Shown here: positions 4,750 to 31,597 of the stretch, one piece after another
How the letters are laid out: every line of letters starts with the position of its first letter
How positions within the stretch are numbered: the first letter of the stretch is position 1
NCBI GenBank assembly: GCA_964648855.1
Contig: CAZYLT010000008.1
Coordinates: 1 to 32,000, forward strand
DNA: 32,000 nt
Direction: 5' to 3'
Origin: an uncultured archaeon
Lineage (GTDB): Archaea; Asgardarchaeota; Thorarchaeia; Thorarchaeales; Thorarchaeaceae
Made by a program: the position numbers and the translations under genes
The notes under the pieces: generated by a model
Told to the model about the DNA's origin: nothing
Database searches by the model: none
The model's input: only the letters and a program-made list of their open reading frames with translations

Positions 4750-5243
4750 TCTCACAGACATTGCCCAATGAAGTAATGATGAGTTTGACCGAGGGCTGCC
4801 ATCATTATCGACAATTCTTGCGCTCTTCCATGATATATACCTCTTATCCCCCTCTGGTGTCAGTATTGGGTTGGTATGAGTTTTGCAATCAATGGCATGC
4901 CTTGACAAATCTGCTGCATCAAGTGTCTAATCTCATTCCTGTCTCCTTCCAGAACAAACTTGTCAATCCAATTCATTCCCACTAAGTCATCAATTTTGTA
5001 GCCCACAGTTCTGGCGGCTGAATTATTTGTACTGAGCACTTCACCTTCTGGGTTCAAAACAAGAAACATAATCTCGGCAAAACTCAGGTATTTTTCAGCC
5101 AGCTTCAGCTCGTCCCAGAGCATTTCTGGTGTGGGTGACCGATGCAATTGGTTTGCATCATCATTCAAATATAGAATCTCCTTAATACGGTTGAATTTTG
5201 TATACCATGTATTTTGCTCGTCTGTATTCATTTTCAGAATCAT
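4750..5243 (-). pseudogene. Frameshifted PAS-PAC domain gene
   Basis: The PAS core (VLNPEGEVLSTNNSAARTVGYKIDDLVGMNWIDKF) is in the ORF-track frame, which stops at 4860. The PAC motif HTNPILTPEGDKRYISWKSARIVDNDGS continues in a shifted frame from ~4895, and VKLIITSLGNV follows a second shift. Confidence 0.7.
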
Positions 5244-5693
5244 TGCAAACTTGTACAAATAGTCGAGTCTATTGGTGTTTCGATAAGATTTTGCATGAAA
5301 GGACTCTCGTATGGCATTACTATCTTGTCCATTGTCACAAATAACGAATGGTATCATGAGGGGGCTGACACTGGCAAGGAACCAGTGGTACAAATAAGTT
5401 TCAAGCATGTTGGATCCTTTCAATTCGTAAAACACAGGTTATCTAGACATTTCCATGATAACTATCATGAGCTTGCCAATAATTCGACTGAATCTATTGA
5501 TTTCTTGGAAGCTAAATCATCCCCCCACAGGAAAATAGAGACGTGCGGATAAATGAGGTTCAGGCCAGACCCATCGACAAATGGATAATAACCACATGAG
5601 AAAACTATATTATCAATCAAAAATATATACAAATATTGGTAACACTTATTAGTCTAACCGTTTGGAGCAAAAGCATCCCCCGAGGGTTGCCCT

Positions 5694-8600
5694 ATGAGTC
5701 CACATACGTCATCTACTAAATTCTTTGTATTTCTTGCTGTACTCTTTTTTATTGCTGTTGTAGCTCCAACAACAAGTCCTGCCGCCACGAATACCAATCC
5801 GAATGACCCTTTGATAATACCTAACGCTCCAACGGGTAACTCAATCGTTAGTCAAACCGGTGACACCTACGATGGAACTGGAGACTGGGTCATCACACAG
5901 CCGACCGAGTATACCAGCGAAACTGTGGTGGTCAATGGTGATATACTCATTCAAGATGGTGGAGCTCTCATTCTGGACTCCGCCGCCATCAGATTCAATG
6001 TAAGCAATGCTCTCCTCAATGTATCGGAGGAGGGATACTTAGAGGGTCATAATTCATATCTTTGGACAGTGGGATCACAGTATGACATCCTTGGTGAATA
6101 CAATATCTCGCTGTATGGGAATGTTTCATGGACCGGTGGTTTCATCCGTCACTTCGATGAGGTTTCGATGAAAGATGGAAACTTGAATGCAACGTTCACA
6201 GATACCGAGTTCTCGTACGGCACTAATAGAATCGCGATACAGGGCCATAAAGTGAGTTTCACAGGATGCGACTTCTACGAGATTGATTGTGATTATGGTT
6301 ATCTGTTACATACAGTCGGAGGTGGATTGACCGGTGGGTTGCTCATCGAGAACTGTCGATTCGGGATTCCCGACTACTATCCGGCACCACAAACTTCGCG
6401 AGGGATGATTAGGGCTGGGAATATGGACGGAGGCCTTGAGATCCTCTCGAACCTCTTCTACGAGGTGAATGCTCATGGCACAACTCGAGGGACTGTGGTA
6501 AGAATAGACCCCTCCGAGAATGCCATTCTGGCTGACAATAGATTCATACGATGCGGTGGCTTCCTTCGCGAAGTTGTGTACATCGGCGATGATGGATGCC
6601 TAGTGTCCGGGAATCGCTTCTTTGGCAATTTCCGTGACGATCCGTCTTATGATCAAGTCCTCTACATGGGGGTTGATGACATCATTGTTGAAAAGAACTT
6701 CTTCTGGAACAACCAGTTCGGCTCAGACATCAGAATATGGGCTGGTCAGAACGTCTCACTGAGGTGGAATACGTTTGTCGATGGAGGGGGAACTGCAATC
6801 CAGCTCGGTGCAGAGGTCACCGGAACTCCCGCCTCTGATTGTCAGGTCTATGGGAATGCATTAGCCTCGAACAATCTAGGAGTGTCGATACATGAGGACT
6901 CGGCAAATCATTCAGTCTATCTCAATTTCTTCATGGACAATACTCTGCATGCGGTGGATAACAATGAAACGAGTAGTTGGACCAACGGAACCCATGGGAA
7001 TTTCTGGGACAACTATACAGGCGGCCCTCCTAACGACAATTGGATAGGCGACGCTTTCAGTCCGCATCCGACCATTCCCGAAGAACCCGCCAGCCTCATG
7101 ATCGGGACTCTACCACCTTCTTCTGGTGACTGGGAGATAGACATCCCTCACGTGTTCGCGATGAAGGACTTGGCCATTGATGGTGATGTCAATGTGACAG
7201 GGCCCACTGGGGCTCTCGTACTCTTTGCTAATAAGCTAGAGTGTGGAGATGCCAATTCATTCACTTTTGGGGAGAGCACTATCTTCTGGCTTCATGAGGC
7301 CGAGCTTACAACCCTGGATCCGTCACATGAGATAGCAGGCTTCCAATTCACGGATGTCTTTCGTTTCGGCGGTTATAGATCTTCGATAAGCAATGTTCGC
7401 AGATACTATGCAGATGATAGCTTCACAGTTTCGGCTGTTATTGTTGAAATCGATATGAGCAACTTTACGAATCTGCCACATCTCGAAATCGATATGGCCT
7501 CTGACTACAGGTTGAACTACGGTCAGCCAATGGAAAGGTGTACTATTCAAGACACTATCTTCATGGGACTCGGCAACCCGCATCATTCTGGTGGAGGCCT
7601 CAGCGTCGATTGGCCCAATCTCCACTTCAGGAACAACACAGTTCACATGAGTGCTTCCGGCAAAGAGGTCCGTCTGTCCTCAGCGTATCAGGCTGGCTTC
7701 GGATATCCTTGGGGGCCTAATGTGACGGCAGAAGGTTGCACTATTGTCAATGCTTCGCTGAATGTCACGGTAATTGGTTACGAATCAGTTGCAAACATCA
7801 CCAACTGCGAGGTGGATGAGGGAATCATGGCGTATTCAAGATACAACGGCATAGATTTAACCTATCTTCACATAGTGGGCAATACCATCAACTCAGGGGG
7901 ATTGGATGCCAGTGATACAGAGCCATACGGGGATCCACACTACGCAATCCTCACCCTTGAAGACAACAGGATTATGGGTAGGACCGACCTAGAACGCATT
8001 TCGAGTGGCAATATAATCAACAGCACCTTCTATGATGCCCATAACGCTCTGGTTATTGAAGACTCTGAACAGTTGACAATACACAATAATACCCTCGACG
8101 GGGATTTGTTTCTCACTGATTGTGACCAATTCCAGATTACAGATAGTCGGTTGGCCATTGTTGAATTTACCCGCTCTGAATCCATATCTTTTGAGAACTG
8201 CGTCTTCAATTCTACAGGAAGCATGTATTTCTGGAGGCCTGCGGGGATTCCCAATAGGCAGATTACATTTGACAACTGTACGTTTGATGGCCTTTCTTGG
8301 AGTATGAATGATAACGATGCTTGTGAATTCCTCACATTCTTCGATTGCACTTTCTACAAGACTGGCTTTGCTCTTGGCACTAACAATCTTGTCAACAACG
8401 TCACTATCGACTCGTCCAAGTTCTTCTTGGATAGCGGGAATGCGATTGACTTTAGAGGTCACAATGCCACCGTGACCAACAACATAATTGTGGGGTCGGG
8501 CGACACTGCAATTCGGCTCAATGATCAAACTAGAGGGAACAATACAGTTGTCACTGGAAATCGGATTGAGAGTTTCGAGGGAAATGGTATACGTGTCCGC

Positions 8601-11600
8601 AATAGCTATTCCTCTATCATAGAGGGAAACGTGATATACGATTGCTTTGGCTATGGGATATTCGTCACCGTTGGCAACCACTCGGTCATAAGCAACAATT
8701 ATGTAGAATCAGTAGGAGGTGCTGGGATCTGGGTTGAGGGGTTTGATCCGGCAAATTGGTTCGTGAGTGTCACGAACAATGTAGCCAGAGATTGTAGCAG
8801 CTACGGAATGTACCTTCGTTACATGAGGAATACCTTGGTCTTTAACAATACCATCGTGGAGAATCAGAATTACGGTCTTCGGGTGAGATTCTGTGGTGAC
8901 TCGCAGTTCTGGATGAATGTCCTGTACCATAATGAGGATGGGAACATAGACCTCCAAGGTAGCAATCACTTCTTTGACAACGGAACTATCGGCAACTTCT
9001 GGGGCCCCTCCGGTCCTGAGGGTTCTGAGTATTGCGACAGTTACTATGACGGCGGTCCTAATCCCTGGATTGGGGATGTTCCCTATGAGCCGAGCCCAGG
9101 CGATAACCAATACGACAATCATCCAATGCTTCTCAGTAATCCTCACTACTTGACATACCCAAATGTTGTCACCGGCCCACTATATATGGATGAACTTCTC
9201 TATGTTCTCAACACGACTGTGTATTGCGAAAATGGTATCATCGTAGCACCAACTGGGAGCCTATATTTCATCGGAACCCGGGTGACATTCCAAGATGATG
9301 GATCTTACACTCAGCATATCGAGATACATACTGGTGGCTCGTTAACTCTCATGGGCGGAGCCCGATTCATGGCAAATCAGACAACGAACACCTATGGCTT
9401 TGTGCTGCGAAGCGGATCCTCACTTATCATCGATGATGCTCACATTTCCAGATGTGGCTATGGGACGGGCAACCCCGGCTTGCTAGTCAATGTAACCGGC
9501 GTTTCTGTCAACGAGCTCACGGTTTTGGATGCGCCCACCGGCATGGTGCTCTCTCAAGACAGCATGGATATCGGTAACATCACCTTCGTAGATTGTGGTG
9601 TAGGTCTACTTGTGAGCGATTGTTCATCTTGTACCATCAGTTCCTTGGAGTTTAGTAACGTTGGCACGGGTGTGAGGTTCGAATCGGTCACGGACAGCTA
9701 TGTTATGAGTGTCAATTTCACCGGCTGCAATGAATTCGGCCTCTATCTTCACTCTCAAAATTCTGATAACACCATTGTGGATAATGTGTTCGCGTTTATC
9801 GGTGGAACCGCCCTCAACATATCAACCGGCGGTAACTATGTCTATTTGAATGCGTTCATCGAAAACGGACATCATATCGAACACAATGAAGCGTTTACGA
9901 ATGCATACAACAACGGAACACATGGAAACTTCTACCTTGATTACGACGGTGTAGATGATGATGGCAATTTCATTGGGGACACACCTTACTCCTCTTCAAT
10001 CTCCGATGTTGTTGATTCGTACCCGGTGATGGTCTACGGCAGTTTTCCGACCGCTGATGGTTGGATAGTTGACAGACCCACAGCTGTGCTGAATACGAAT
10101 TACACCATTTCCGGTGATGTGGATGTCCACGAGATGCTGGTGCTATTGAACACTCGATTATGGATGAATAGCACAGATTCTATCTCTCATACAATCACTG
10201 TTCATCTAACTGGGGACTTGAGATTGGTAGGTGCCATATTGAGAGCAGTCAATTCAAGTCATAAGTTCACCATGATTGCACAGGCGAAATCATTCATCTA
10301 CTTGTCCGATGTCAATCTTGTTGGTCTTGAAACATTCGACTTGCATACTGCAAACATCGCCATTGAAAATACAACTTTCACTGACATCAATCGTGGCCTT
10401 CGTCTGCTAGGCGCCAGTATCTCAGACCTCGTCTTTGAGAACTGTACTGTGGATAGCGCCCTGAACACTGGCTTCTATGTTGGCTCCGGTATCAACAACA
10501 TCACAATACGAGATTGGGTCTTCTATTCGGCTGAAACTGCAATACACGTCGACCAAGGAGTAGACATCTTTATTGAAGACATTCATGTGGACAACTGCAC
10601 AACAGGAGTGTCCTATCATGGAAACAGCGGTATTCTGAGTGTGACGAATTCTGATTTCTACAGAACCCAGAATGTCATAGATGCAGACACAGCAGACCTG
10701 CTGTTTGTGGATGGCATACACGGGTATTTGATAGAAGCATACGGCATCAGGGTATCTTCGGTCGGCAATGCCACGATTCTAAATTCACATATAGAGATGA
10801 CAGGCGGTGGAAGGTCCTACCATATTGATCAATATGTTGATTGGTATCTGATATCCAATTCGTATGGTTTCAATGCAACCGCCGGAGTTACGATATCCCC
10901 GCACTTTAATGATCATGGAACTCATGGTTCCGTGACAGGCGGTGATTTCAGAAACTGCACCATGGGCATAGAATTCGTTGGTTCAAATCAGATCGTCTAT
11001 CTGAACGTGACTGACACGTTCCTCTATGGCTGTGATGTCGGATTCAAGGGCCACGCGTTAGGTGTCATAAGAGTGGCCGAAAACGAGTTCTTGTACTGTG
11101 GAACAGCCATTGACGCCATGAACCTGAATGGGTCATTCTTTGAGAACAACGAAATCCAGAACTCGGAATATGGTTTCTTTACGGAGAACGATGATTTCCA
11201 TGATTGCCTCATTGCAGGAAACTCCTACCTCGATGTAGACTATCCAGTATACGTTAAAGGACCTCAATCCAACTTCACCATTACGGATGAGACCATTGTC
11301 AACTGTGTCATCGGTATTTATCTCGATGGAAGATATGCTTGGATGGAGAATGTTTTCATTGAAAACATACATGTTACGGGCTCGACTGATAGTGCAGTTC
11401 AACTATACTGGAGTAGGAACATAACGCTGTTTGGGTCAACAATAGAGAATTTCGAAGATGGCGTGGTAATAGATCATTCGGAGATGATATTCCTCAACCA
11501 GACCGCGGTTACAGATGGTGTCATCGGGGTTCGCATCGAAGATTGGTCCTCGCTGACCATGAGACACTGCATCATATCAGGTGCCTCGACGCAGGCCATT

Positions 11601-13154
11601 CAATACGGCCAAGAATCGATAACTGTAGACATTGACACAAGCAACACCGTAGAGGGACTACCCGCATACTCGTTCTATGGCCTTACTGATGAGGTTCTCT
11701 CTGGATTCGAGACCTATCATCTTGCTATACTCCAATCGAACAACGTCACCCTCGTGTCTTGGAATGTTCATCGAATGGATCGCCTGAGCATACTACAGTC
11801 CGGCAATATCACAATCGCCAACTCCACGCTGGACTGTGATGTGTACATTGACAGCGACGATGTCACCTTCGTAGGCAACATCTTCGAGTCTGCTGAAGAG
11901 ATTGAGGTATACTCTAGGATGGACAGCTCTATTGTCACCATGTATCTCAACGCATTTCGTACCCAGTACCTATTCGAGCGAGGAGGATGGCCAAATGCTG
12001 TCTTCATGCTCAATGGCACTGATTATGGCAACTACTGGTACAACTACGAAGGCGTTGATTCCGATGGGGACGGGATTGGTGATGACCCATTCTTGGTTTC
12101 CGGCTCAGGCACCTATGACTATCTACCTCTCATGGTTGATCCCTCTGCATATGATGTATACATCAATATCATTCATCCCTCTGATGGAGATGCCTTCTTG
12201 GGATTGTTGGCTGTTTCAGTTGAGGTTCAAGTTGTGGTTGGAATCTATTATGAAGGCGATGGCAGTGCAGAGACTGTAATTACCCTAGACGGCGTTGTGA
12301 TTTTTACTGGAGATGACGGAGAAATCGAGTTCGAGTATGACACCTCCCAGTTGACTGATGGTGTCTATACCTTCAGAGTAACCACTACGGTGGACTCTAG
12401 TGATGACTTCATCCAAGAGATACAACTCACAATTGACAACACGCCTCCTGCACTTGAGCCGTCAATTGAAGATGAGGAGGCCACCACTGATAGATGGCCC
12501 TATTGGAGTGTAGAAGCATCAGACGCTCTCTCTGACCTGAAATGGATTGCAGTGTTCTTGGATGGCGATCTGGTCAACAATGAAACTCAACACGACAGCA
12601 CCGGCACACTCTACTTCGACCTTGAATTCACAGATGATGGAGCATATGAGCTCTGCTTTATGTCAAGCGATGTTATCGGCAATATAGGCAAGTTCAATCT
12701 CACTGTATACTTTGATACCACACCTCCTCAGCTCAGCTCTCCTGGCGATGTGAGTTATGAAGAGGGAACCACTGGGCATACTGTCACATGGCAAGGAAGT
12801 GATCTTACTGCTAGCCATTACAATGTAACACTGAATGGAGTATCATACATTGATTCTGACTGGGATGGTTCTGATATCGTTATCGAGATCGATGGGTTGG
12901 ATGTTGGCCTCCATACACTGGAGATCAATGTCTATGACAGAGTAGGCCATTCTTCTAATGATGCAGTGCAGATAGAGGTGACAGAGCCGACAGAGCCTAC
13001 CGACACCACAGACCCAACAGAACCAACAGGGCCTACCGACCCCACAGAACCGGTTGATGATATCATGCTTATTGTGCTGGTAGCGGGTATTGCAGTGGGA
13101 GCTGTTGTTGTAGTCATTGTTCTTCTCCAAGTGAAGAAGAAGTCTGCTGGCTAA
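5694..13154 (+). CDS. Giant (2486 aa) cell-surface protein: signal peptide, four beta-helix/NosD-like modules, Ig-like domains, TEP/TDP linker, C-terminal TM anchor
   Basis: N-terminal KFFVFLAVLFFIAVVA; abundant PbH1-like repeats; four caps G-N-[FY]-[WY]...D.WIGD/DGIGD; C-terminal TM followed by KKKSAG. Confidence 0.88.
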   Translation: MSPHTSSTKFFVFLAVLFFIAVVAPTTSPAATNTNPNDPLIIPNAPTGNSIVSQTGDTYDGTGDWVITQPTEYTSETVVVNGDILIQDGGALILDSAAIRFNVSNALLNVSEEGYLEGHNSYLWTVGSQYDILGEYNISLYGNVSWTGGFIRHFDEVSMKDGNLNATFTDTEFSYGTNRIAIQGHKVSFTGCDFYEIDCDYGYLLHTVGGGLTGGLLIENCRFGIPDYYPAPQTSRGMIRAGNMDGGLEILSNLFYEVNAHGTTRGTVVRIDPSENAILADNRFIRCGGFLREVVYIGDDGCLVSGNRFFGNFRDDPSYDQVLYMGVDDIIVEKNFFWNNQFGSDIRIWAGQNVSLRWNTFVDGGGTAIQLGAEVTGTPASDCQVYGNALASNNLGVSIHEDSANHSVYLNFFMDNTLHAVDNNETSSWTNGTHGNFWDNYTGGPPNDNWIGDAFSPHPTIPEEPASLMIGTLPPSSGDWEIDIPHVFAMKDLAIDGDVNVTGPTGALVLFANKLECGDANSFTFGESTIFWLHEAELTTLDPSHEIAGFQFTDVFRFGGYRSSISNVRRYYADDSFTVSAVIVEIDMSNFTNLPHLEIDMASDYRLNYGQPMERCTIQDTIFMGLGNPHHSGGGLSVDWPNLHFRNNTVHMSASGKEVRLSSAYQAGFGYPWGPNVTAEGCTIVNASLNVTVIGYESVANITNCEVDEGIMAYSRYNGIDLTYLHIVGNTINSGGLDASDTEPYGDPHYAILTLEDNRIMGRTDLERISSGNIINSTFYDAHNALVIEDSEQLTIHNNTLDGDLFLTDCDQFQITDSRLAIVEFTRSESISFENCVFNSTGSMYFWRPAGIPNRQITFDNCTFDGLSWSMNDNDACEFLTFFDCTFYKTGFALGTNNLVNNVTIDSSKFFLDSGNAIDFRGHNATVTNNIIVGSGDTAIRLNDQTRGNNTVVTGNRIESFEGNGIRVRNSYSSIIEGNVIYDCFGYGIFVTVGNHSVISNNYVESVGGAGIWVEGFDPANWFVSVTNNVARDCSSYGMYLRYMRNTLVFNNTIVENQNYGLRVRFCGDSQFWMNVLYHNEDGNIDLQGSNHFFDNGTIGNFWGPSGPEGSEYCDSYYDGGPNPWIGDVPYEPSPGDNQYDNHPMLLSNPHYLTYPNVVTGPLYMDELLYVLNTTVYCENGIIVAPTGSLYFIGTRVTFQDDGSYTQHIEIHTGGSLTLMGGARFMANQTTNTYGFVLRSGSSLIIDDAHISRCGYGTGNPGLLVNVTGVSVNELTVLDAPTGMVLSQDSMDIGNITFVDCGVGLLVSDCSSCTISSLEFSNVGTGVRFESVTDSYVMSVNFTGCNEFGLYLHSQNSDNTIVDNVFAFIGGTALNISTGGNYVYLNAFIENGHHIEHNEAFTNAYNNGTHGNFYLDYDGVDDDGNFIGDTPYSSSISDVVDSYPVMVYGSFPTADGWIVDRPTAVLNTNYTISGDVDVHEMLVLLNTRLWMNSTDSISHTITVHLTGDLRLVGAILRAVNSSHKFTMIAQAKSFIYLSDVNLVGLETFDLHTANIAIENTTFTDINRGLRLLGASISDLVFENCTVDSALNTGFYVGSGINNITIRDWVFYSAETAIHVDQGVDIFIEDIHVDNCTTGVSYHGNSGILSVTNSDFYRTQNVIDADTADLLFVDGIHGYLIEAYGIRVSSVGNATILNSHIEMTGGGRSYHIDQYVDWYLISNSYGFNATAGVTISPHFNDHGTHGSVTGGDFRNCTMGIEFVGSNQIVYLNVTDTFLYGCDVGFKGHALGVIRVAENEFLYCGTAIDAMNLNGSFFENNEIQNSEYGFFTENDDFHDCLIAGNSYLDVDYPVYVKGPQSNFTITDETIVNCVIGIYLDGRYAWMENVFIENIHVTGSTDSAVQLYWSRNITLFGSTIENFEDGVVIDHSEMIFLNQTAVTDGVIGVRIEDWSSLTMRHCIISGASTQAIQYGQESITVDIDTSNTVEGLPAYSFYGLTDEVLSGFETYHLAILQSNNVTLVSWNVHRMDRLSILQSGNITIANSTLDCDVYIDSDDVTFVGNIFESAEEIEVYSRMDSSIVTMYLNAFRTQYLFERGGWPNAVFMLNGTDYGNYWYNYEGVDSDGDGIGDDPFLVSGSGTYDYLPLMVDPSAYDVYINIIHPSDGDAFLGLLAVSVEVQVVVGIYYEGDGSAETVITLDGVVIFTGDDGEIEFEYDTSQLTDGVYTFRVTTTVDSSDDFIQEIQLTIDNTPPALEPSIEDEEATTDRWPYWSVEASDALSDLKWIAVFLDGDLVNNETQHDSTGTLYFDLEFTDDGAYELCFMSSDVIGNIGKFNLTVYFDTTPPQLSSPGDVSYEEGTTGHTVTWQGSDLTASHYNVTLNGVSYIDSDWDGSDIVIEIDGLDVGLHTLEINVYDRVGHSSNDAVQIEVTEPTEPTDTTDPTEPTGPTDPTEPVDDIMLIVLVAGIAVGAVVVVIVLLQVKKKSAG
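12981..13052 (+). repeat. Imperfect 9-bp tandem repeat encoding a (T-E/D-P)n linker
   Basis: acagagccg acagagcct accgacacc acagaccca acagaacca ... translates TEPTEPTDTTDPTEPTGPTDPTEP. Confidence 0.85.
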
Positions 13155-17105: not shown

Positions 17106-17525
17106 ATGAAGATTGCGAACTATGATGAAATTCAGGTTGACGATGAAGCAGAGGTCACTCATACAGTGACTGAAGAAGACATCGAAGCGTTTGGAGAACT
17201 AAGTGGTGACTACAATCCTCTCCACTTTGATGACGAGTGGGCAAGTAAGACAATGTTCAAGGGTCGCATAGCTCATGGAATGCTAACTGCATCCTTCATA
17301 AGCACCGTAATTGGGATGAAACTCCCAGGAACAGGCACTGTCTATCTGAGTCAAGAGATGAAGTTCAAACGCCCTGTAAGAATTGGTGACACCATAATTG
17401 CGAGAGTAAAGGTTGCAGAGAAGAATGATGAACGACATCATATTTCTCTCTTGACCGAGTGTACAAACCAAGATGGCAAGGTTGTCCTTGAGGGCAATGC
17501 CGTGGTCACTTTGATGCGTTTCTAG
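17106..17525 (+). CDS. MaoC/PhaJ-type (R)-specific enoyl-CoA hydratase (hot-dog fold)
   Basis: Hydratase-2 motif FGELSGDYNPLHFD...RIAHGML, plus LPGTG and F-x-x-PV-x-x-GD; GGAGG upstream of the ATG. Confidence 0.92.
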   Translation: MKIANYDEIQVDDEAEVTHTVTEEDIEAFGELSGDYNPLHFDDEWASKTMFKGRIAHGMLTASFISTVIGMKLPGTGTVYLSQEMKFKRPVRIGDTIIARVKVAEKNDERHHISLLTECTNQDGKVVLEGNAVVTLMRF

Positions 17526-17617
17526 AGTGATGCAATACCCCCTCGTTTTCTAGTTAAATTGTCCAATAGAAGTGTCAGATTTTCCCCTAGCTGTGCTCAC
17601 CGCGAGTTTTGTGGCAG

Positions 17618-17625
17618 CTTAAATA
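17618..17625 (+). promoter_or_regulatory. Archaeal TATA box for the putative ncRNA
   Basis: CTTAAATA ends ~22 nt before GGACTAGG (17647), which is normal TATA-to-start spacing. Confidence 0.5.
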
Positions 17626-17646
17626 GCCCCCGTCAGACTCACTACT

Positions 17647-18064
17647 GGACTAGGTGAGTGGGCCAGCACCTTTGTGCGGAGCTCGCAACCGAAAACCCGA
17701 GGGAAGTCAACGACTTCTCGACGGAGGTCCTACTCTCCACCAAAGGGACTACATCAGCTCCCGGAGAGTCCGCGGCTGTTCACCGTGCTCAGACGAATCT
17801 TATTGACTTTGGCGACGAAGCTAGTAAGGGTGATCATGAACCCGCCGTGGGAAGAACTGTGGAAAGCCTCACTGTGGCTGAGTGTGATGCCTCAGGACAT
17901 ACACAGGAGGAAGAGACCAGGACCGTGGGAGGGATCCCATCCCGATGACCATGGACAAAGCTCCTGCTGACTCAGTGGCCCTCGGGTACGCTGGGGGCGG
18001 TGACGCTGGCAGGGGACGGGTGGAACACAGAAATTTCAGACACGTTGAGGTCACTCAATCTGTC
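17647..18064 (+). ncRNA. Putative large structured non-coding RNA (~420 nt), family unassigned; a divergent SRP RNA is one candidate
   Basis: GC ~57% by hand count versus ~36% in the following 120 nt; the two ends pair with each other; many long-range helices; upstream TATA box; overlapping ORFs look spurious. Confidence 0.6.
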
Positions 18065-18346
18065 AGAAATAGTTTATCTAGATATGCCAGCTACCCCTAA
18101 TGTCACTACTCCCTATCAAATGTACCCGTATTTTGTATATAGTCAATGTCTAACGAAGTAAATGAACCCAACTCTGAGTTTGTGTGTATCATCAATCATT
18201 CTTGAATTAGATTTGCCTCAGCGTACCTTCAGGCACCATTTCAGTAATTTCCACACTACATGTCAGGTATGTATAAATTAACACACAAATCTATTTTAGT
18301 ACAGATTTGCCACATGATAAACGCCACTTGGAGGAATGAAACGGAG

Positions 18347-23113: not shown

Positions 23114-23740
23114 ATGCTCTTATCTAGTAGCCACCAAAGGGGTGTTGGAGTACAATTGAGAGACCAAGATGACGGTAGCAAAGTGATGAAGGCCGTACTG
23201 ATAGGTGACGGCGCAGTTGGCAAAACAAGCATTCGCCGAAATTACTTAGGTGATGAATTCATAGAGGGGCACATCGCAACCATCGGAGTTGATCTTGCAA
23301 CTAAGAGAGTCCTATTTGATGATGAAATTGTGAAATTCATTATATGGGACTTGGCAGGTCAACCTTCTTTTGAGCAGGTTCGAGGGCATTATTACCACGG
23401 CTGTAACGGAATTTTATTGGTCTATTCGGTTGTGGACCGGGATTCATTCGACAATGCCAGCAAATGGCTGGTGGAAGCATACAAGAACATGGGTCCACTG
23501 CCACCTACTGTGATCGTTGGCAATAAGACTGACCTGAGAGATGGTGTGCCTCCAGAGCAGAGAGTTACTACTGAGGACGGTGAGGATTTCACGAAATACT
23601 TCATCAAGAAACTGGAGGTCCCAGCTGTATTCTACGAGACCTCAGCGAAGACTGGGCACAATATCGAGAATGTGTTCAGAGACCTCTTGACCATGATGGG
23701 CGAGGCTGAATCAGAAGAGAGCGACCTATACATTGGATAG
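23114..23740 (+). CDS. Rab-like small GTPase (Ras superfamily, eukaryotic signature protein)
   Basis: G1 GDGAVGKTS, G2 TIGVD, G3 WDLAGQ, G4 NKTD, G5 ETSAK. The real start may be a downstream TTG/GTG/ATG. Confidence 0.93.
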   Translation: MLLSSSHQRGVGVQLRDQDDGSKVMKAVLIGDGAVGKTSIRRNYLGDEFIEGHIATIGVDLATKRVLFDDEIVKFIIWDLAGQPSFEQVRGHYYHGCNGILLVYSVVDRDSFDNASKWLVEAYKNMGPLPPTVIVGNKTDLRDGVPPEQRVTTEDGEDFTKYFIKKLEVPAVFYETSAKTGHNIENVFRDLLTMMGEAESEESDLYIG

Positions 23741-26875: not shown

Positions 26876-29800
26876 CTACTTTCTTTTCTTCATGAAGAAG
26901 ACGAGCATAACAACAATTACAACTCCAGCAACCGAACCAATGAGCAACAATGGTAGAAAATCGGACCCACCATGAGGAACAAGAACATCAGTTCCCCTAA
27001 TTTCTACATGGTGTTCGCTATGTTGGTAGGTCAAATGAATAACTGTTGCAGTTTCGTTTGAGTCAGCCACGTAATCAATAGCCTCACCATCGAAGAGAAC
27101 GTCCCACTCATTGTGAGGTGCATATAGAAGATTTCTTGGAATTGTGATATTGCAGAAACCGATTGTATCATCTTCCCCAGCTATGTCGAATTCTATGACT
27201 CCTTCCTCCTCAATAAAAGAGGGATTTTGGATATCCGAATTAGTGCGGAAATCTATATTGTACCCAAGGTCGGGAACTGTCCATATGAGTATTTTCGGGA
27301 AATTGCTTGGATTCAACGGGTCAGAACCAAAGTCTACTTCATAACCATCATTATACCCGTCCCCGTCGGTGTCTTCAAGGAAGCATAATGTGTGGTTGAT
27401 TAGATGAGAATAATGCCTGAACGTTGTGTTTTCATCTCCCAGAGTCGTGTAGGTGTATCCAGGTATTATCATGTTCAGCTCATGGTAATCTGAGAGTAAG
27501 TCATTGTCAAAGTCTGTGTCTATGCCGTCAAGCCACATGTCAGAATCCTGGTCCGGATCAAACATGTCAGTACCCAGGGGGTACCAGCTCAATGAAGGAT
27601 TCTGATACTCAAAGACCTCAAAACCATCGTAGATGCCATCGTTGTCTGAGTCGTAATCTAAAATATTGACAACACCATCATTGTCAAAATCGCCTAGCGG
27701 AGCATGAGCTGAATTCCCACTATCGGCAGCCCTCTCCTCACAATACAGGACTTCATCCAAATCGGTGAGCCCATCGGCATCTGTGTCATTATTCAGAGGG
27801 TCTAACGAAACCCTTGTTGGCTGAAGACCTTCATATGCATGATATGTAACAATTTCATCATAGTCTGAAAGCCCGTCCCCATCCGAATCTGGATGAAGGG
27901 GATTAGTGCCATTCATGAGCTCGTGGTAGTCATTAATGCCATCATGATCCGTGTCAGCCTCAATTGGACTCGTATATCTCCTGTTCTCAGGCAGAGATGT
28001 GTTGGTGGTCACTGTTATACCCACATTAGGGTCAAACGTGCTATAATTACTGCTTGCCACTGAGGTTGGTACATAGAGTTCGGTCCAGTCATCCAAACCG
28101 TCCATATCCGTGTCCGGCATCAACATGTCTGTCCCTTCTTGTTCCTCAATGAAGTCACTGATACCATCCTTGTCATAGTCGTGGTAGTGCCAGATATCAG
28201 GCACCTCATTCCACCCTTTCAGAAACCTACCTTCCATGTAGGCTATCTCATCCACATCCAGCCAGCCGTCTGCGTCAGTATCATTCGTTACTGGCGATAG
28301 TACGATTTCTTTCTCAAGGCCATCGGCGAGGCCATCAGAATCAGTGTCAGCTTCCATAGGATGAGTCTGGAACCGTGCTCTATAGGGGTCGGGTGAAGCG
28401 AATAGTTCTCTGAGGATATACTCGTCGTCCTCTTCTTGAATAGGTTCTTGAATATCAGTTGACCCTGTTGCCACCCTTCTGTCGACTGCCCAGTTCCAGC
28501 CGAAGTACTCTTCTCCGTCAGTGAGGTTATCGTCATCTGAATCTGGATCATTTGGATCCGTGAAGTATGTCACATTCCCATGATACAGGATGTACATCTG
28601 ACCCTCAGCTACTTCCGTAGCATCTGAGAGGCCATCATTGTCTGTGTCTCGTCGGAGCGGGTCTGTTGCATAGACATGTACCTCAACACCGTCAAGGAGT
28701 GAGTCCCCATCAGAGTCACTTACTAATGGAGATGTACCTATTTCGAGCTCCTGACCATCCAGGAGCTGGTCTGAATCTGTATCATTGTTGAGAGGATCTG
28801 TTCCAATTCTGAGTTCCATCCCATCGAGAATACCATCATTATCAACATCAGAATTGTTTAAGTAATGCAGATTTGCGATTGTTTCGTTGGAAATTCCGCG
28901 AGTGAGATTATAGTACTGGACCTCAATACCGTCCATTAGGCCATCGGAATCAGTATCAGGCTCTGAGCAATTTGCATTAAAGAAGAAGAAATCTGCAACA
29001 TTATTGATCCCATCGCCATCGGAGTCGTCTTCTACTGGATTTGTATCGTTTGCGTATTCCTCCACATCAGTTGTTCCATCATTATCAGAGTCTTTCTTCA
29101 AGGGGTTCGTGGGGGTAGGATTGAGTGGTTTACAGTCATCTAATCCAAATGGATGCCCGTTCCAAGTGTTCCCATGGATTTCTCCATAATCATCGAAATT
29201 GCCATTGGTTCCAGAATTGACAGCTCTGCTCTGTTCAGTTGCATTGATGTAGTTATCATTATCTAGGTCAAAATCGCCGTCCGTGTCTATGTCGAGGGGC
29301 GATGTTCCATAATCGAACTCTTCGCCATCAAGTAATCCCTCGCCATCAACGTCAGGATTTAGGATATATAGGACTGGAGATGGGACCCCATAGAAATTCT
29401 CATACCAATCATATTCCGCCTTGTCCCATAAGCCATCATCATCTGAGTCTTTTTTAAGTGGGTGAGGGTGTGGGTCTTCTAGATCTGGACCTGCAAATGC
29501 CCATTCTTCAGAGTCGGTAAAGCCATCGAAGTCTGTATCCTTAAGCGAGGGATTAGTCTTGATTACCTCAAGCCAATGCGCACTATTCATGCCTTTGAGT
29601 TCTTGCTTGTCATTGAGGCCATCATTATCACTATCATAGTCTATAATGCATGGCTTTCCGTCGTTGTCATAATCTGCCAAGGGGTCAAGTCCGGCAGCAT
29701 AGAATAGAGCCAGTTCTTCAGAGTCAATGAGGCCATCCTGGTCTGTATCATTTTGTAATGGGTCAGTGAAATAGTAAAGTAACTCATTGCCATCAGAGAG

Positions 29801-31597
29801 ATGATCATTATCAGTATCCACTTTTGTGGGATCCAATCCCATACTTTTCTCTAATTCATCCCATAGACCATCTCCATCAAGGTCTAAGTTGGCGTGGTCG
29901 TCGGTGGGCGGATTCGTGGCGCTATCCTTTAATTGGATAGAAAGAAATGGGACCGTATCTTTCCAAGATTTTGTGATGTCGAACTTGAAGATCCAGAATA
30001 GGGATGCATAGAACTTGAAGAATAGGTTGTAGAATAGTCCTACCTTGAAAGATTCTCCCTCGTGACCAAATGACGCTTGTGCCAAGATCCCTGTTTTTGC
30101 TTTCAGCTTCACTCCTAGCTTTATGAAATCCAGGGGAAGGCTAACTCCTATGGCATCCTTGATGTAAGATGCCGGTGATGGCAAGCTAAGAGAGATATCA
30201 AGACCAAATCCGACCTTTAGAGTGACATCTTGTTGTGACGCCTCTTTAGTGGCATTATAGTTCATCCCAAGCATAAGCGATAGATAGTTGACCAGATTCA
30301 CTTTCATGTTCAAGAGGTCCATTATAGTAGTAACAGTTTTCCCCGTGCCAGGAATGAGGTAATCGAGAAAAGTTGCTAAGGGAATACCGAGCTCAAAGCC
30401 GAAGTCAATGGAGAATGAACCCCCCATGAACTTGAATGGATTGCCAGCTATTGAAGGGTTGGCATCAGCAATCTGCTGAATGAAGTTGCCTATACGCAAA
30501 GTAGCGCTGAGCTTTGGAGTTAGCTCCAGTGTAACAGAATATCCCGCAGCCTTGAAGACCTCCTTTAGCCCCAGGACCTCTGTCAGATCGAGCGAACCGT
30601 CCTCTGCCTGTACAGTGAATACCAAATCAACATATTCTGGCATGTACCAGGGTCCAGTCCCAATACGAGGATCAACACCGAAATCGATGGGAATTTCGAA
30701 TGGAAACTCACCTGTGTTCGAGTTTCCAGCACCCATCTTCTTCATCTCAATTGAGCCCTCACCAGTAGAGCCACTATTGATTTTTGATTCGTCGAAACTG
30801 ACATGTGTTGAATTTGAGTCGTACCAATCGCCATAATCGAAGCCCGTAACAAGTAGTATCGTCATAAAGACATCAATAATCCAGCCCCATGGCCCGCGAG
30901 AATCAGTTTCATCCTGTGTATAGTCAATATAGAAACCATCCAGTGAGTTCTTCGGACTAATTGTCCTTTGAATTATGGTGTTCAAATTGCTCAACAGATA
31001 GAAACTGGTTATGTCAAATAACTGATCAGAAATCTTCTGTCTTTTTGGTTCAGTTGATTTGAAGATCTCATATATTGAGCATAATGCTCCAAGTAGTGCT
31101 ATTTCAGCATCAATTGAACCCTGCAACGTATGAATGCTGTGTTCAGGTAGCATTTTACTAAGAATGCTGGAGTGACAGACTTGGAAGATATTATGCTCAA
31201 CATCAGCATTCTCCATAATTTTGCTCAAAGCCGTCCAAGATAAGACGTCTGAACCGATCTCCATTCCGCGTTGCGTCCCATGAAATACGTAGACATTCAT
31301 CTTGGAACCGCTCAGGCTACGAACAAAGTGTTCTTCTGACCATATTGGGATTCTTTGTGCAGATAAATCAGATTTCGACAACTCTTTGTAGAGCCTGTCC
31401 GCAGTTTTTCTGGAAATCCTGTCCATTGAATTGAAGAGAATCTTGACCAAATATCCATCATGAGAAGAATCAGCTTCAAACGCATCAGAATGTAAATGAA
31501 AACTTGGTTGAACAATTTCAGCTGAACTGACTGCAACAACTAATGGATTGACCAGCAAAGATAGAACTAGAAGTGTAGAATAGACCTTAACTCTCAT
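26876..31597 (-). CDS. 1573-aa secreted, C-terminally anchored protein: caspase/gingipain-like N-domain, beta-rich central domain, ~29 Ca-binding DxDxDG repeats, C-terminal beta domain, TM
   Basis: Signal peptide; VYVFHG...IFQVCHS; repeats of P-x-x-x-D-[ST]-D-x-D-G-L-x-D-x-x-E; FCNITIPRNLL...YQHSEHHVEIRGT; TM followed by KKRK. Confidence 0.85.
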   Translation of the reverse strand: MRVKVYSTLLVLSLLVNPLVVAVSSAEIVQPSFHLHSDAFEADSSHDGYLVKILFNSMDRISRKTADRLYKELSKSDLSAQRIPIWSEEHFVRSLSGSKMNVYVFHGTQRGMEIGSDVLSWTALSKIMENADVEHNIFQVCHSSILSKMLPEHSIHTLQGSIDAEIALLGALCSIYEIFKSTEPKRQKISDQLFDITSFYLLSNLNTIIQRTISPKNSLDGFYIDYTQDETDSRGPWGWIIDVFMTILLVTGFDYGDWYDSNSTHVSFDESKINSGSTGEGSIEMKKMGAGNSNTGEFPFEIPIDFGVDPRIGTGPWYMPEYVDLVFTVQAEDGSLDLTEVLGLKEVFKAAGYSVTLELTPKLSATLRIGNFIQQIADANPSIAGNPFKFMGGSFSIDFGFELGIPLATFLDYLIPGTGKTVTTIMDLLNMKVNLVNYLSLMLGMNYNATKEASQQDVTLKVGFGLDISLSLPSPASYIKDAIGVSLPLDFIKLGVKLKAKTGILAQASFGHEGESFKVGLFYNLFFKFYASLFWIFKFDITKSWKDTVPFLSIQLKDSATNPPTDDHANLDLDGDGLWDELEKSMGLDPTKVDTDNDHLSDGNELLYYFTDPLQNDTDQDGLIDSEELALFYAAGLDPLADYDNDGKPCIIDYDSDNDGLNDKQELKGMNSAHWLEVIKTNPSLKDTDFDGFTDSEEWAFAGPDLEDPHPHPLKKDSDDDGLWDKAEYDWYENFYGVPSPVLYILNPDVDGEGLLDGEEFDYGTSPLDIDTDGDFDLDNDNYINATEQSRAVNSGTNGNFDDYGEIHGNTWNGHPFGLDDCKPLNPTPTNPLKKDSDNDGTTDVEEYANDTNPVEDDSDGDGINNVADFFFFNANCSEPDTDSDGLMDGIEVQYYNLTRGISNETIANLHYLNNSDVDNDGILDGMELRIGTDPLNNDTDSDQLLDGQELEIGTSPLVSDSDGDSLLDGVEVHVYATDPLRRDTDNDGLSDATEVAEGQMYILYHGNVTYFTDPNDPDSDDDNLTDGEEYFGWNWAVDRRVATGSTDIQEPIQEEDDEYILRELFASPDPYRARFQTHPMEADTDSDGLADGLEKEIVLSPVTNDTDADGWLDVDEIAYMEGRFLKGWNEVPDIWHYHDYDKDGISDFIEEQEGTDMLMPDTDMDGLDDWTELYVPTSVASSNYSTFDPNVGITVTTNTSLPENRRYTSPIEADTDHDGINDYHELMNGTNPLHPDSDGDGLSDYDEIVTYHAYEGLQPTRVSLDPLNNDTDADGLTDLDEVLYCEERAADSGNSAHAPLGDFDNDGVVNILDYDSDNDGIYDGFEVFEYQNPSLSWYPLGTDMFDPDQDSDMWLDGIDTDFDNDLLSDYHELNMIIPGYTYTTLGDENTTFRHYSHLINHTLCFLEDTDGDGYNDGYEVDFGSDPLNPSNFPKILIWTVPDLGYNIDFRTNSDIQNPSFIEEEGVIEFDIAGEDDTIGFCNITIPRNLLYAPHNEWDVLFDGEAIDYVADSNETATVIHLTYQHSEHHVEIRGTDVLVPHGGSDFLPLLLIGSVAGVVIVVMLVFFMKKRK

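Follow-up and report, generated by a model that had tools for sequence, protein, structure and literature searches.

The window analyzed here, a 32,000-nt stretch of a Thorarchaeaceae contig, holds a GC-rich stretch placed between a MaoC-like gene (17106–17525) and the next gene. Alignment of copies set the borders of the element that carries it at 17527–18076 (550 bp), with the hexamer TCTAGA on either side: the MaoC-like gene ends with its stop codon inside the left one (17521–17526), and the right one (18077–18082), recognized from the duplications of the copies, supplies the opening bases of the predicted guide. Reading along the plus strand, on which all features of the element lie, the transposon left end (17527–17600, with the end motif TGTCAGA at 17573–17579) is common to copies in the same genome and to the autonomous element L074. 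It is followed by an archaeal TATA box, CTTAAATA (17618–17625), identified by comparison of copies, with a transcription start predicted at G17647, and by a scaffold of ~430 nt (17647–18076) whose last bases (18072–18076) form the 3' strand of a pseudoknot, as indicated by the fold and by the copy alignment. The original prediction placed here a structured RNA gene ending at 18064; all the motifs it quoted are present and the GC island it described was confirmed (56.5% over 17647–18076 versus 39% in the following 300 bp), but the feature is larger, and the RNA ends at 18076. A Ras-family small GTPase (23114–23740), a 2486-aa beta-helix/NosD protein (5694–13154) and a 1573-aa TSP3-repeat protein (26876–31597) in the window are unrelated to the element. 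A degenerate right-end remnant of the same element lies at 5350–5447, terminating in TCTAGA (5442–5447) and overlapping the 5' part of a PAS ORF (4860–5435, minus strand); its left end was not found nearby.

The genome contained more than 20 copies or fragments of the stretch, many of them sitting at contig ends, and DNA searches matched it in 25 of 36 genomes of the same family and in none of 24 genomes outside the family. A pattern search of viral contigs for the element and a search of metagenomes with a window-specific 25-mer returned no match. Identical hexamers were found at both ends of 23 complete short copies, in seven variants with the consensus TCNNGA, and this pair is a 6-bp target-site duplication (TSD); several copies had no matching TSD. 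The orthologous site is empty in a genome of the same genus (G001), where the downstream gene sits next to the MaoC-like gene and the element is absent. Copies, TSDs and this empty site together show that the element is multicopy, polymorphic and mobile. The feature is the core of a 550-bp gene-less mobile element of an Asgard archaeon, and neither an SRP-like RNA nor an entirely new one. Elements of this kind are known; the transposon family here has been little studied. The element consists of transposon ends, a promoter and the large, folded guide RNA that belongs to a TnpB nuclease, and nothing else.

The RNA region corresponds to the 3' end of a Thorarchaeota tnpB gene (17647–18076, ~70% protein identity, frameshifted), such that the element retains the last ~100 codons of tnpB and the right end. 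The relic of the C-terminal coding tail spans 17647–17948 and matches TnpB residues 458–485 and 486–556 in two frames (71% and 70% identity), with a frameshift near 17731 and no in-frame start codon, and it reads as a broken tnpB remnant. Two ~97-aa ORFs over the region, which had no Pfam match, are pieces of this tail. Divergent copies sit at the 3' end of 555–620-aa ORFs that contain a TNB zinc finger and match TnpB/Cas12f families weakly. The parent TnpBs have the RuvC motifs GIDLG (RuvC-I D) and NADxN (RuvC-III D), while RuvC-II has an E-to-G change and an alternative E in VxExWTS, a rearranged RuvC type described by Altae-Tran et al. (2023; PMC10691335), and their structure model resembles Cas12f and TnpB structures. 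Four intact tnpB genes in the same genome belong to more divergent elements.

Selection along tnpB changes character toward this tail. Divergence at 4-fold sites was 0.57–0.71 in the gene body and 0.21–0.34 from codon −20 on, and differences at the three codon positions shifted from 0.31/0.21/0.58 to 0.28/0.27/0.33 in the tail, with periodicity lost. The conservation might have been due to a small ORF encoding the C-terminal tail of TnpB, given that the frame is open in 39 of 41 tnpB-linked copies and that, in other Thorarchaeota lineages, an ATG stands at −6 in the tnpB-less copies, whose ~101-codon frames are mostly intact. However, the frameshift and the missing in-frame start rule out this copy, the frame is broken in about half of the tnpB-less copies, codon periodicity is absent, the tail is predicted to be disordered (pLDDT <50, residues 470–557), and conservation extends over the last 130 nt, which are non-coding, making a protein signal very improbable. 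The ATG-bearing copies (L111, L116, L120, L121, L130, L147 and L239–L282) have it in frame at the predicted start, 6 nt ahead of GGACTAGG, and mostly keep the ~101-codon tail frame intact (14 of 17 held-out loci); the window and g12 lineages are unlike them. This ATG could denote a leaderless peptide, or the youth of these copies combined with an initiator element.

A large structured RNA, as proposed in the original prediction, is supported by covariation, by synonymous-site suppression and by recurrent TATA boxes, and the region is non-coding in the window copy. The covariation set comprised 90 distinct copies (41 tnpB-linked, 47 tnpB-less and 2 at edges). Of the 30 top covarying pairs, 24 were Watson–Crick and 14 stacked, versus 2–8 and 0 in tree simulations; given that only three single pairs reached E ≤ 0.05 against the simulated null, the support comes from the enrichment and stacking of pairs. 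Folding of the single sequence was mildly better than that of shuffles (z = −2.05). The consensus fold was 90% paired in 30 held-out metagenome copies (<95% identity), with 237 compensatory cells, whereas slid controls reached 41–44%, and the window copy retains 125 of 133 consensus pairs. Covariation, the held-out test and 4-fold-site suppression all bear on 17647–18076 as the whole RNA unit. The RNA profile had no match in tnpB loci of another Asgard family (f5).

Domain 1 (17647–17730) is closed by a helix (17647–51/17726–30) around two hairpin arms, with covarying pairs 17662–17682, 17667–17676 and 17697–17723, and is followed by a helix with a variable loop (17732–17769; 17732–38/17763–69, 87–100% paired). 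The multi-branch domain 3 (17770–17850) includes hairpins at 17787–98 and 17799–17828, covaries at 17788–17797, 17789–17796, 17811–17816 and 17784–17829, and contains the 5' strand of the pseudoknot (17837–17841). The pseudoknot (17837–41/18072–76) was 91–96% paired, and 94.5% paired in held-out copies, and has one strongly covarying pair; position pair 17840–18073 was C-G in 61 copies, A-T in 14 and T-A in 7. In domain 4 (17857–18030), a closing helix (17857–61/18026–30) holds arms at 17868–17909, 17921–17956 and 17961–18015, with stacked covarying pairs at 17971–77/17989–95 and further ones at 17876–17902 and 17924–17953. The subterminal hairpin of the right end (18033–18070) shows a compensatory exchange at 18039–18064 (T-A 49, G-C 13), and its 3' strand contains the end motif TGTCAGA (18061–67). 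Among the helices proposed originally, the local hairpins GCAC/GTGC and GAAGTC/GACTTC and, within a nested arm, CCGTGG/CCATGG and GGGAT/ATCCC had covariation support, but CAGGAG/CTCCTG of the same arm did not (G about 0). The terminal helix (17648–61/18051–64) and the long-range GCCAGC/GCTGGC helix had no covariation (G about 0), nor did the perfect 9-bp ACCCGAGGG/CCCTCGGGT, which is paired in 31–96% of copies per position; the segments of these helices, those of CAGGAG/CTCCTG included, pair locally instead. In A3 loci, tnpB codons −10 to −1 before GGACTAGG are near-invariant; in tnpB-linked copies they fold into a CTCACA/TGTGAG hairpin immediately ahead of the RNA start, a possible processing signal.

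The idea that this RNA is a divergent housekeeping RNA of the SRP or RNase P/MRP type drew only on a 5' GGACUAGG likeness raised in the original prediction. This SRP-like start, GGACTAGG, encodes (GGA CTA GG) the Gly-Leu-Gly of TnpB, and the element is multicopy with TSDs. Canonical genes lie elsewhere in the genome, for SRP RNA with 107.8 bits (G000:C2:49700–50010) and for RNase P RNA with 155 bits (C6:41563–41894), and the element profile matches neither. An Rfam scan at gathering and E-value thresholds yielded nothing real, a CbSR1 hit at E 1.2 being chance. The window feature does not qualify as archaeal SRP RNA (RF01857; Alu and S domains, helix 8) or as archaeal RNase P RNA (RF00373; P4 motifs), and an Alu/SINE-like origin was rejected along with them. 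A housekeeping role can be set aside as having almost no chance of being right. The suggested alternative, an undescribed large Asgard ncRNA, holds only in part: the RNA represents the omegaRNA portion of a TnpB transposon, and a multicopy non-autonomous element carries it. Origin from the tnpB 3' end and right end, a conserved fold, a subterminal hairpin and a terminal pseudoknot are all present, the last two corresponding to omegaRNA hallmarks, namely a hairpin ≤10 nt from the end and pseudoknot pairing of the final scaffold bases (10.1101/2023.11.20.567912; PMC10097598; PMC10278001).

The position of the guide follows from where this architecture ends. Conservation across copies stops at 18076/77, and the flank beyond is near-random (84 distinct 12-mers in 87 copies, ~1.9 bits). 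PMC10691335 describes a variable segment between a conserved T and GTTCACTCA downstream of tnpB, at 18036–18057 in the window, and proposes this "hypervariable" segment as a spacer-like internal guide. The segment does vary (49 distinct 12-mers in the same 87 copies), and the motif downstream of it is likened there to the start of a CRISPR repeat. However, its entropy is mostly 1.0–1.8 bits, versus 1.9–2.0 for the flank; members of a subfamily share it regardless of insertion site, and it varies together with their end motif, TGTCAGA or TGTAAGA; and, upstream of the pseudoknot, it forms the 5' side of the subterminal hairpin, with a compensatory pair, while the near-random part is the flank. 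An internal guide is therefore improbable. Given that the pseudoknot and the hairpin both end at 18076 and that the internal segment is a hairpin strand, the guide slot is placed, from these sequence comparisons, in the TSD and downstream flank rather than in the segment favored in that paper. The predicted slot (18077–18096) consists of host flank, opens with the duplicated hexamer and is unique in the genome, with no second match, so that the only target of the predicted guide would be the empty allele of its own site.

Copies without tnpB appear to have acquired their own start of transcription. A TATA-like motif was present 24–40 nt upstream in 34 of 47 tnpB-less and 3 of 41 tnpB-linked copies, in line with the promoter predicted originally, and held-out copies included further independent promoters. 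The tnpB-less copies are dispersed over the tree, with 14 label changes, at least eight of them forced, between tnpB-linked and tnpB-less. Their left parts differ, nearly all resume the tnpB sequence at or just before GGACTAGG, and the TATA-like box lies ~28–35 nt upstream of it. We conclude that tnpB-less copies arose repeatedly, most of them with a TATA box, although recombination between copies may inflate the number of origins. The RNA of the window copy would start at G17647. A sigma-70 promoter scan does not bear on this start, archaeal promoters being outside its scope. In metatranscriptome X1 (share 0.05), eight contigs of relatives, 80–95% alike, cover 17713–18082; their strand and transcript ends are unreadable and they could be of DNA origin, and we did not count them as expression.

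The parent tnpB genes are arranged head-to-head with genes for giant proteins of 1500–1830 aa, in which residues 1–258 adopt a Cas1 catalytic fold, followed by a PD-(D/E)xK motif. With residues 1–258 as query, the top 12 VIA-align rows were Cas1 or casposase (Z 9.0–13.3, next 6.0; rmsd 3.4–4.0 over 152–197 residues); Foldseek found Cas1 at E ≥ 0.01 only, and Pfam, PDB-sequence and Atlas searches were blank. These parents fit the published aCas1-TnpB loci of Asgard archaea, and their gene content points to aCas1 as the probable mobilizing enzyme. The autonomous L074 has a window-type left end and TCCAGA at both ends, ~8.2 kb apart, and thus shares ends and TSD type with the window element. In the window's own genome, C4:3–9246 has a window-type left end and an aCas1 gene that is partial and split; this partner (C4:3–4259) is split by a stop, and tnpB is missing at the contig edge. 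An IS200/IS605 PATE was rejected, as no Y1 TnpA partner was found and a 6-bp TSD is present; likewise IS607, as no serine-recombinase TnpA was found and a TSD is present. Neither a Y1 gene (PF01797) nor a serine-recombinase gene (PF00239) was found in this 94.6%-complete genome. With a probability of roughly 0.8, the window element is a non-autonomous ("RNA-only") derivative of a Thorarchaeota aCas1-TnpB transposon.

Several further features of these loci were observed. C4:1–9246 is a cargo-carrying element with a window-type left end, the TSD TCCGGA and the split aCas1, and C2:1–236, which opens with a right end and then TCCGGA, may be its other end. Just inside its left end (2590–2660), L074 has the cassette of 3' hairpin and right end a second time, as a mini copy, and an extra gene for a 224–247-aa protein without a Pfam match lies between aCas1 and tnpB in L074 (7601–8344, minus strand) and L072. 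Some aCas1-tnpB elements (L069 and L070, on G000 C21 and C28, and L197) adjoin tRNA-gene sequence at the right end, with a degenerate tRNA copy at the far end of C21; this subgroup appears to target tRNA genes instead of TCNNGA. In L084 and L079, the tnpB leader has a right-end-like motif followed by ~12 nt matching the gene's own upstream AT-rich sequence.

The element could be a passive MITE, moved in trans, whose RNA is no longer used by TnpB and whose structure was inherited, or is kept for transposition or as an RNA decoy. The ends alone suffice for mobility, the window-type partner in the genome is incomplete, and among single changes, pair-breaking and pair-keeping ones are about equally frequent (61/63). 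However, within the tnpB-less clade of the window, divergence was 0.075 at paired versus 0.159 at unpaired sites, and 17 of 24 double changes stayed Watson–Crick (shuffle mean 6.2, maximum 11). Selection on the fold thus continues in this clade after tnpB loss, with compensatory change ongoing, part of which recombination between copies could explain. Moreover, several independent lineages have the complete 430-nt unit together with a TATA box at the right spacing. We consider a passive MITE unlikely.

In an RNA-only derivative with a functional guide RNA, the Cas1-fold/PD-(D/E)xK protein of full-length elements would act in trans on the TGTCAGA-type end sites. With the tnpB mRNA lost, the scaffold would be transcribed from its own TATA promoter, near G17647, and read into the flank; a TnpB from another locus would load this RNA, with the flank after 18076 as guide against element-free copies of the site, and cutting followed by repair from the filled allele would keep or spread the element. 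Insertion sites had a purine at −3 in 21 of 23 cases (p = 2e-5) and at −2 in 18 of 23 (p = 0.002), while the element's own end had T at both positions in 23 of 23; sites thus tend to read RRN|TCNNGA, and the element end always reads TTA or TTT before the hexamer. No strong TAM was visible. The purine bias could be a TAM that spares filled sites, and equally an integrase preference; we can only speculate that TTA/TTT versus RRN acts as a TAM-like self/non-self signal by which the filled site escapes cutting. More tentatively, and as a picture we hold to be possible rather than probable, Thorarchaeota would carry dozens of promoter-bearing RNA-only copies of a Cas1-mobilized family, supplying different flank guides to shared TnpBs, with a scaffold that may act beyond guiding. 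If so, the copies would amount to a guide library, dispersed and written by an integrase of the Cas1 fold, that resembles CRISPR adaptation and interference in a forerunner form without arrays; in addition to guiding, the 430-nt four-domain scaffold might, for instance, link TnpB to the integrase.

These results remove a false lead of a new SRP-like RNA and offer, for a TnpB family that is uncharacterized, a model that can be used. In the aCas1-TnpB elements, one transposon combines an integrase of the Cas1 fold with an ancestor of Cas12; the guide RNA of these elements had been undefined. RNA-only copies mark its 5' end, by promoter position, and its 3' end, by pseudoknot and TSD, and insertion sites supply a candidate TAM; therefore, guide position, TAM and Cas1-driven transposition become directly testable.

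Among known systems, the closest are the aCas1-associated TnpB loci of Asgard archaea, Cas1H-Asgard-1 and -2 (PMC10691335). The parents share with them the head-to-head tnpB and giant Cas1-fold protein genes and the T-(variable)-GTTCACTCA segment, whereas the window copy has neither tnpB nor aCas1. In the accessible text of that paper, the 430-nt structured scaffold, the pseudoknot, the TCNNGA duplication and the RNA-only copies are not described, and the guide is proposed to be internal. PATE-like non-autonomous IS200/IS605 elements also encode omegaRNA (Meers et al., PMC10055086) and, like the window element, have no protein gene, keep both ends and need TnpB in trans. However, they insert scarlessly next to a TAM, whereas the window element has a 6-bp TSD and a dedicated TATA promoter of a recurrent kind, belongs to a family with a Cas1-fold partner, and lies in a genome in which no Y1 or serine-recombinase gene was found. 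The omegaRNA/reRNA of ISDra2 TnpB (PMC10097598) similarly overlaps the disordered tnpB C-terminal tail and has a subterminal hairpin ≤10 nt from the end, a pseudoknot on the last bases and a flank-derived guide. Its functional scaffold is 116 nt, while that of the window element is ~430 nt, with all four domains conserved and no Rfam model match, a length inside the 79–466 nt range of processed omegaRNAs (PMC10278001). Haloarchaeal sotRNAs (RF02656/RF02657; PMC12558985) are likewise archaeal omegaRNAs overlapping the tnpB 3' end, but they are attached to tnpB in an IS200/IS605 context, and the window RNA matches neither model. The Cas1-fold transposon class, the 6-bp TCNNGA TSD, the four-domain scaffold and the repeated gain of a promoter set the element apart from the RNA-only elements known in IS200/IS605.
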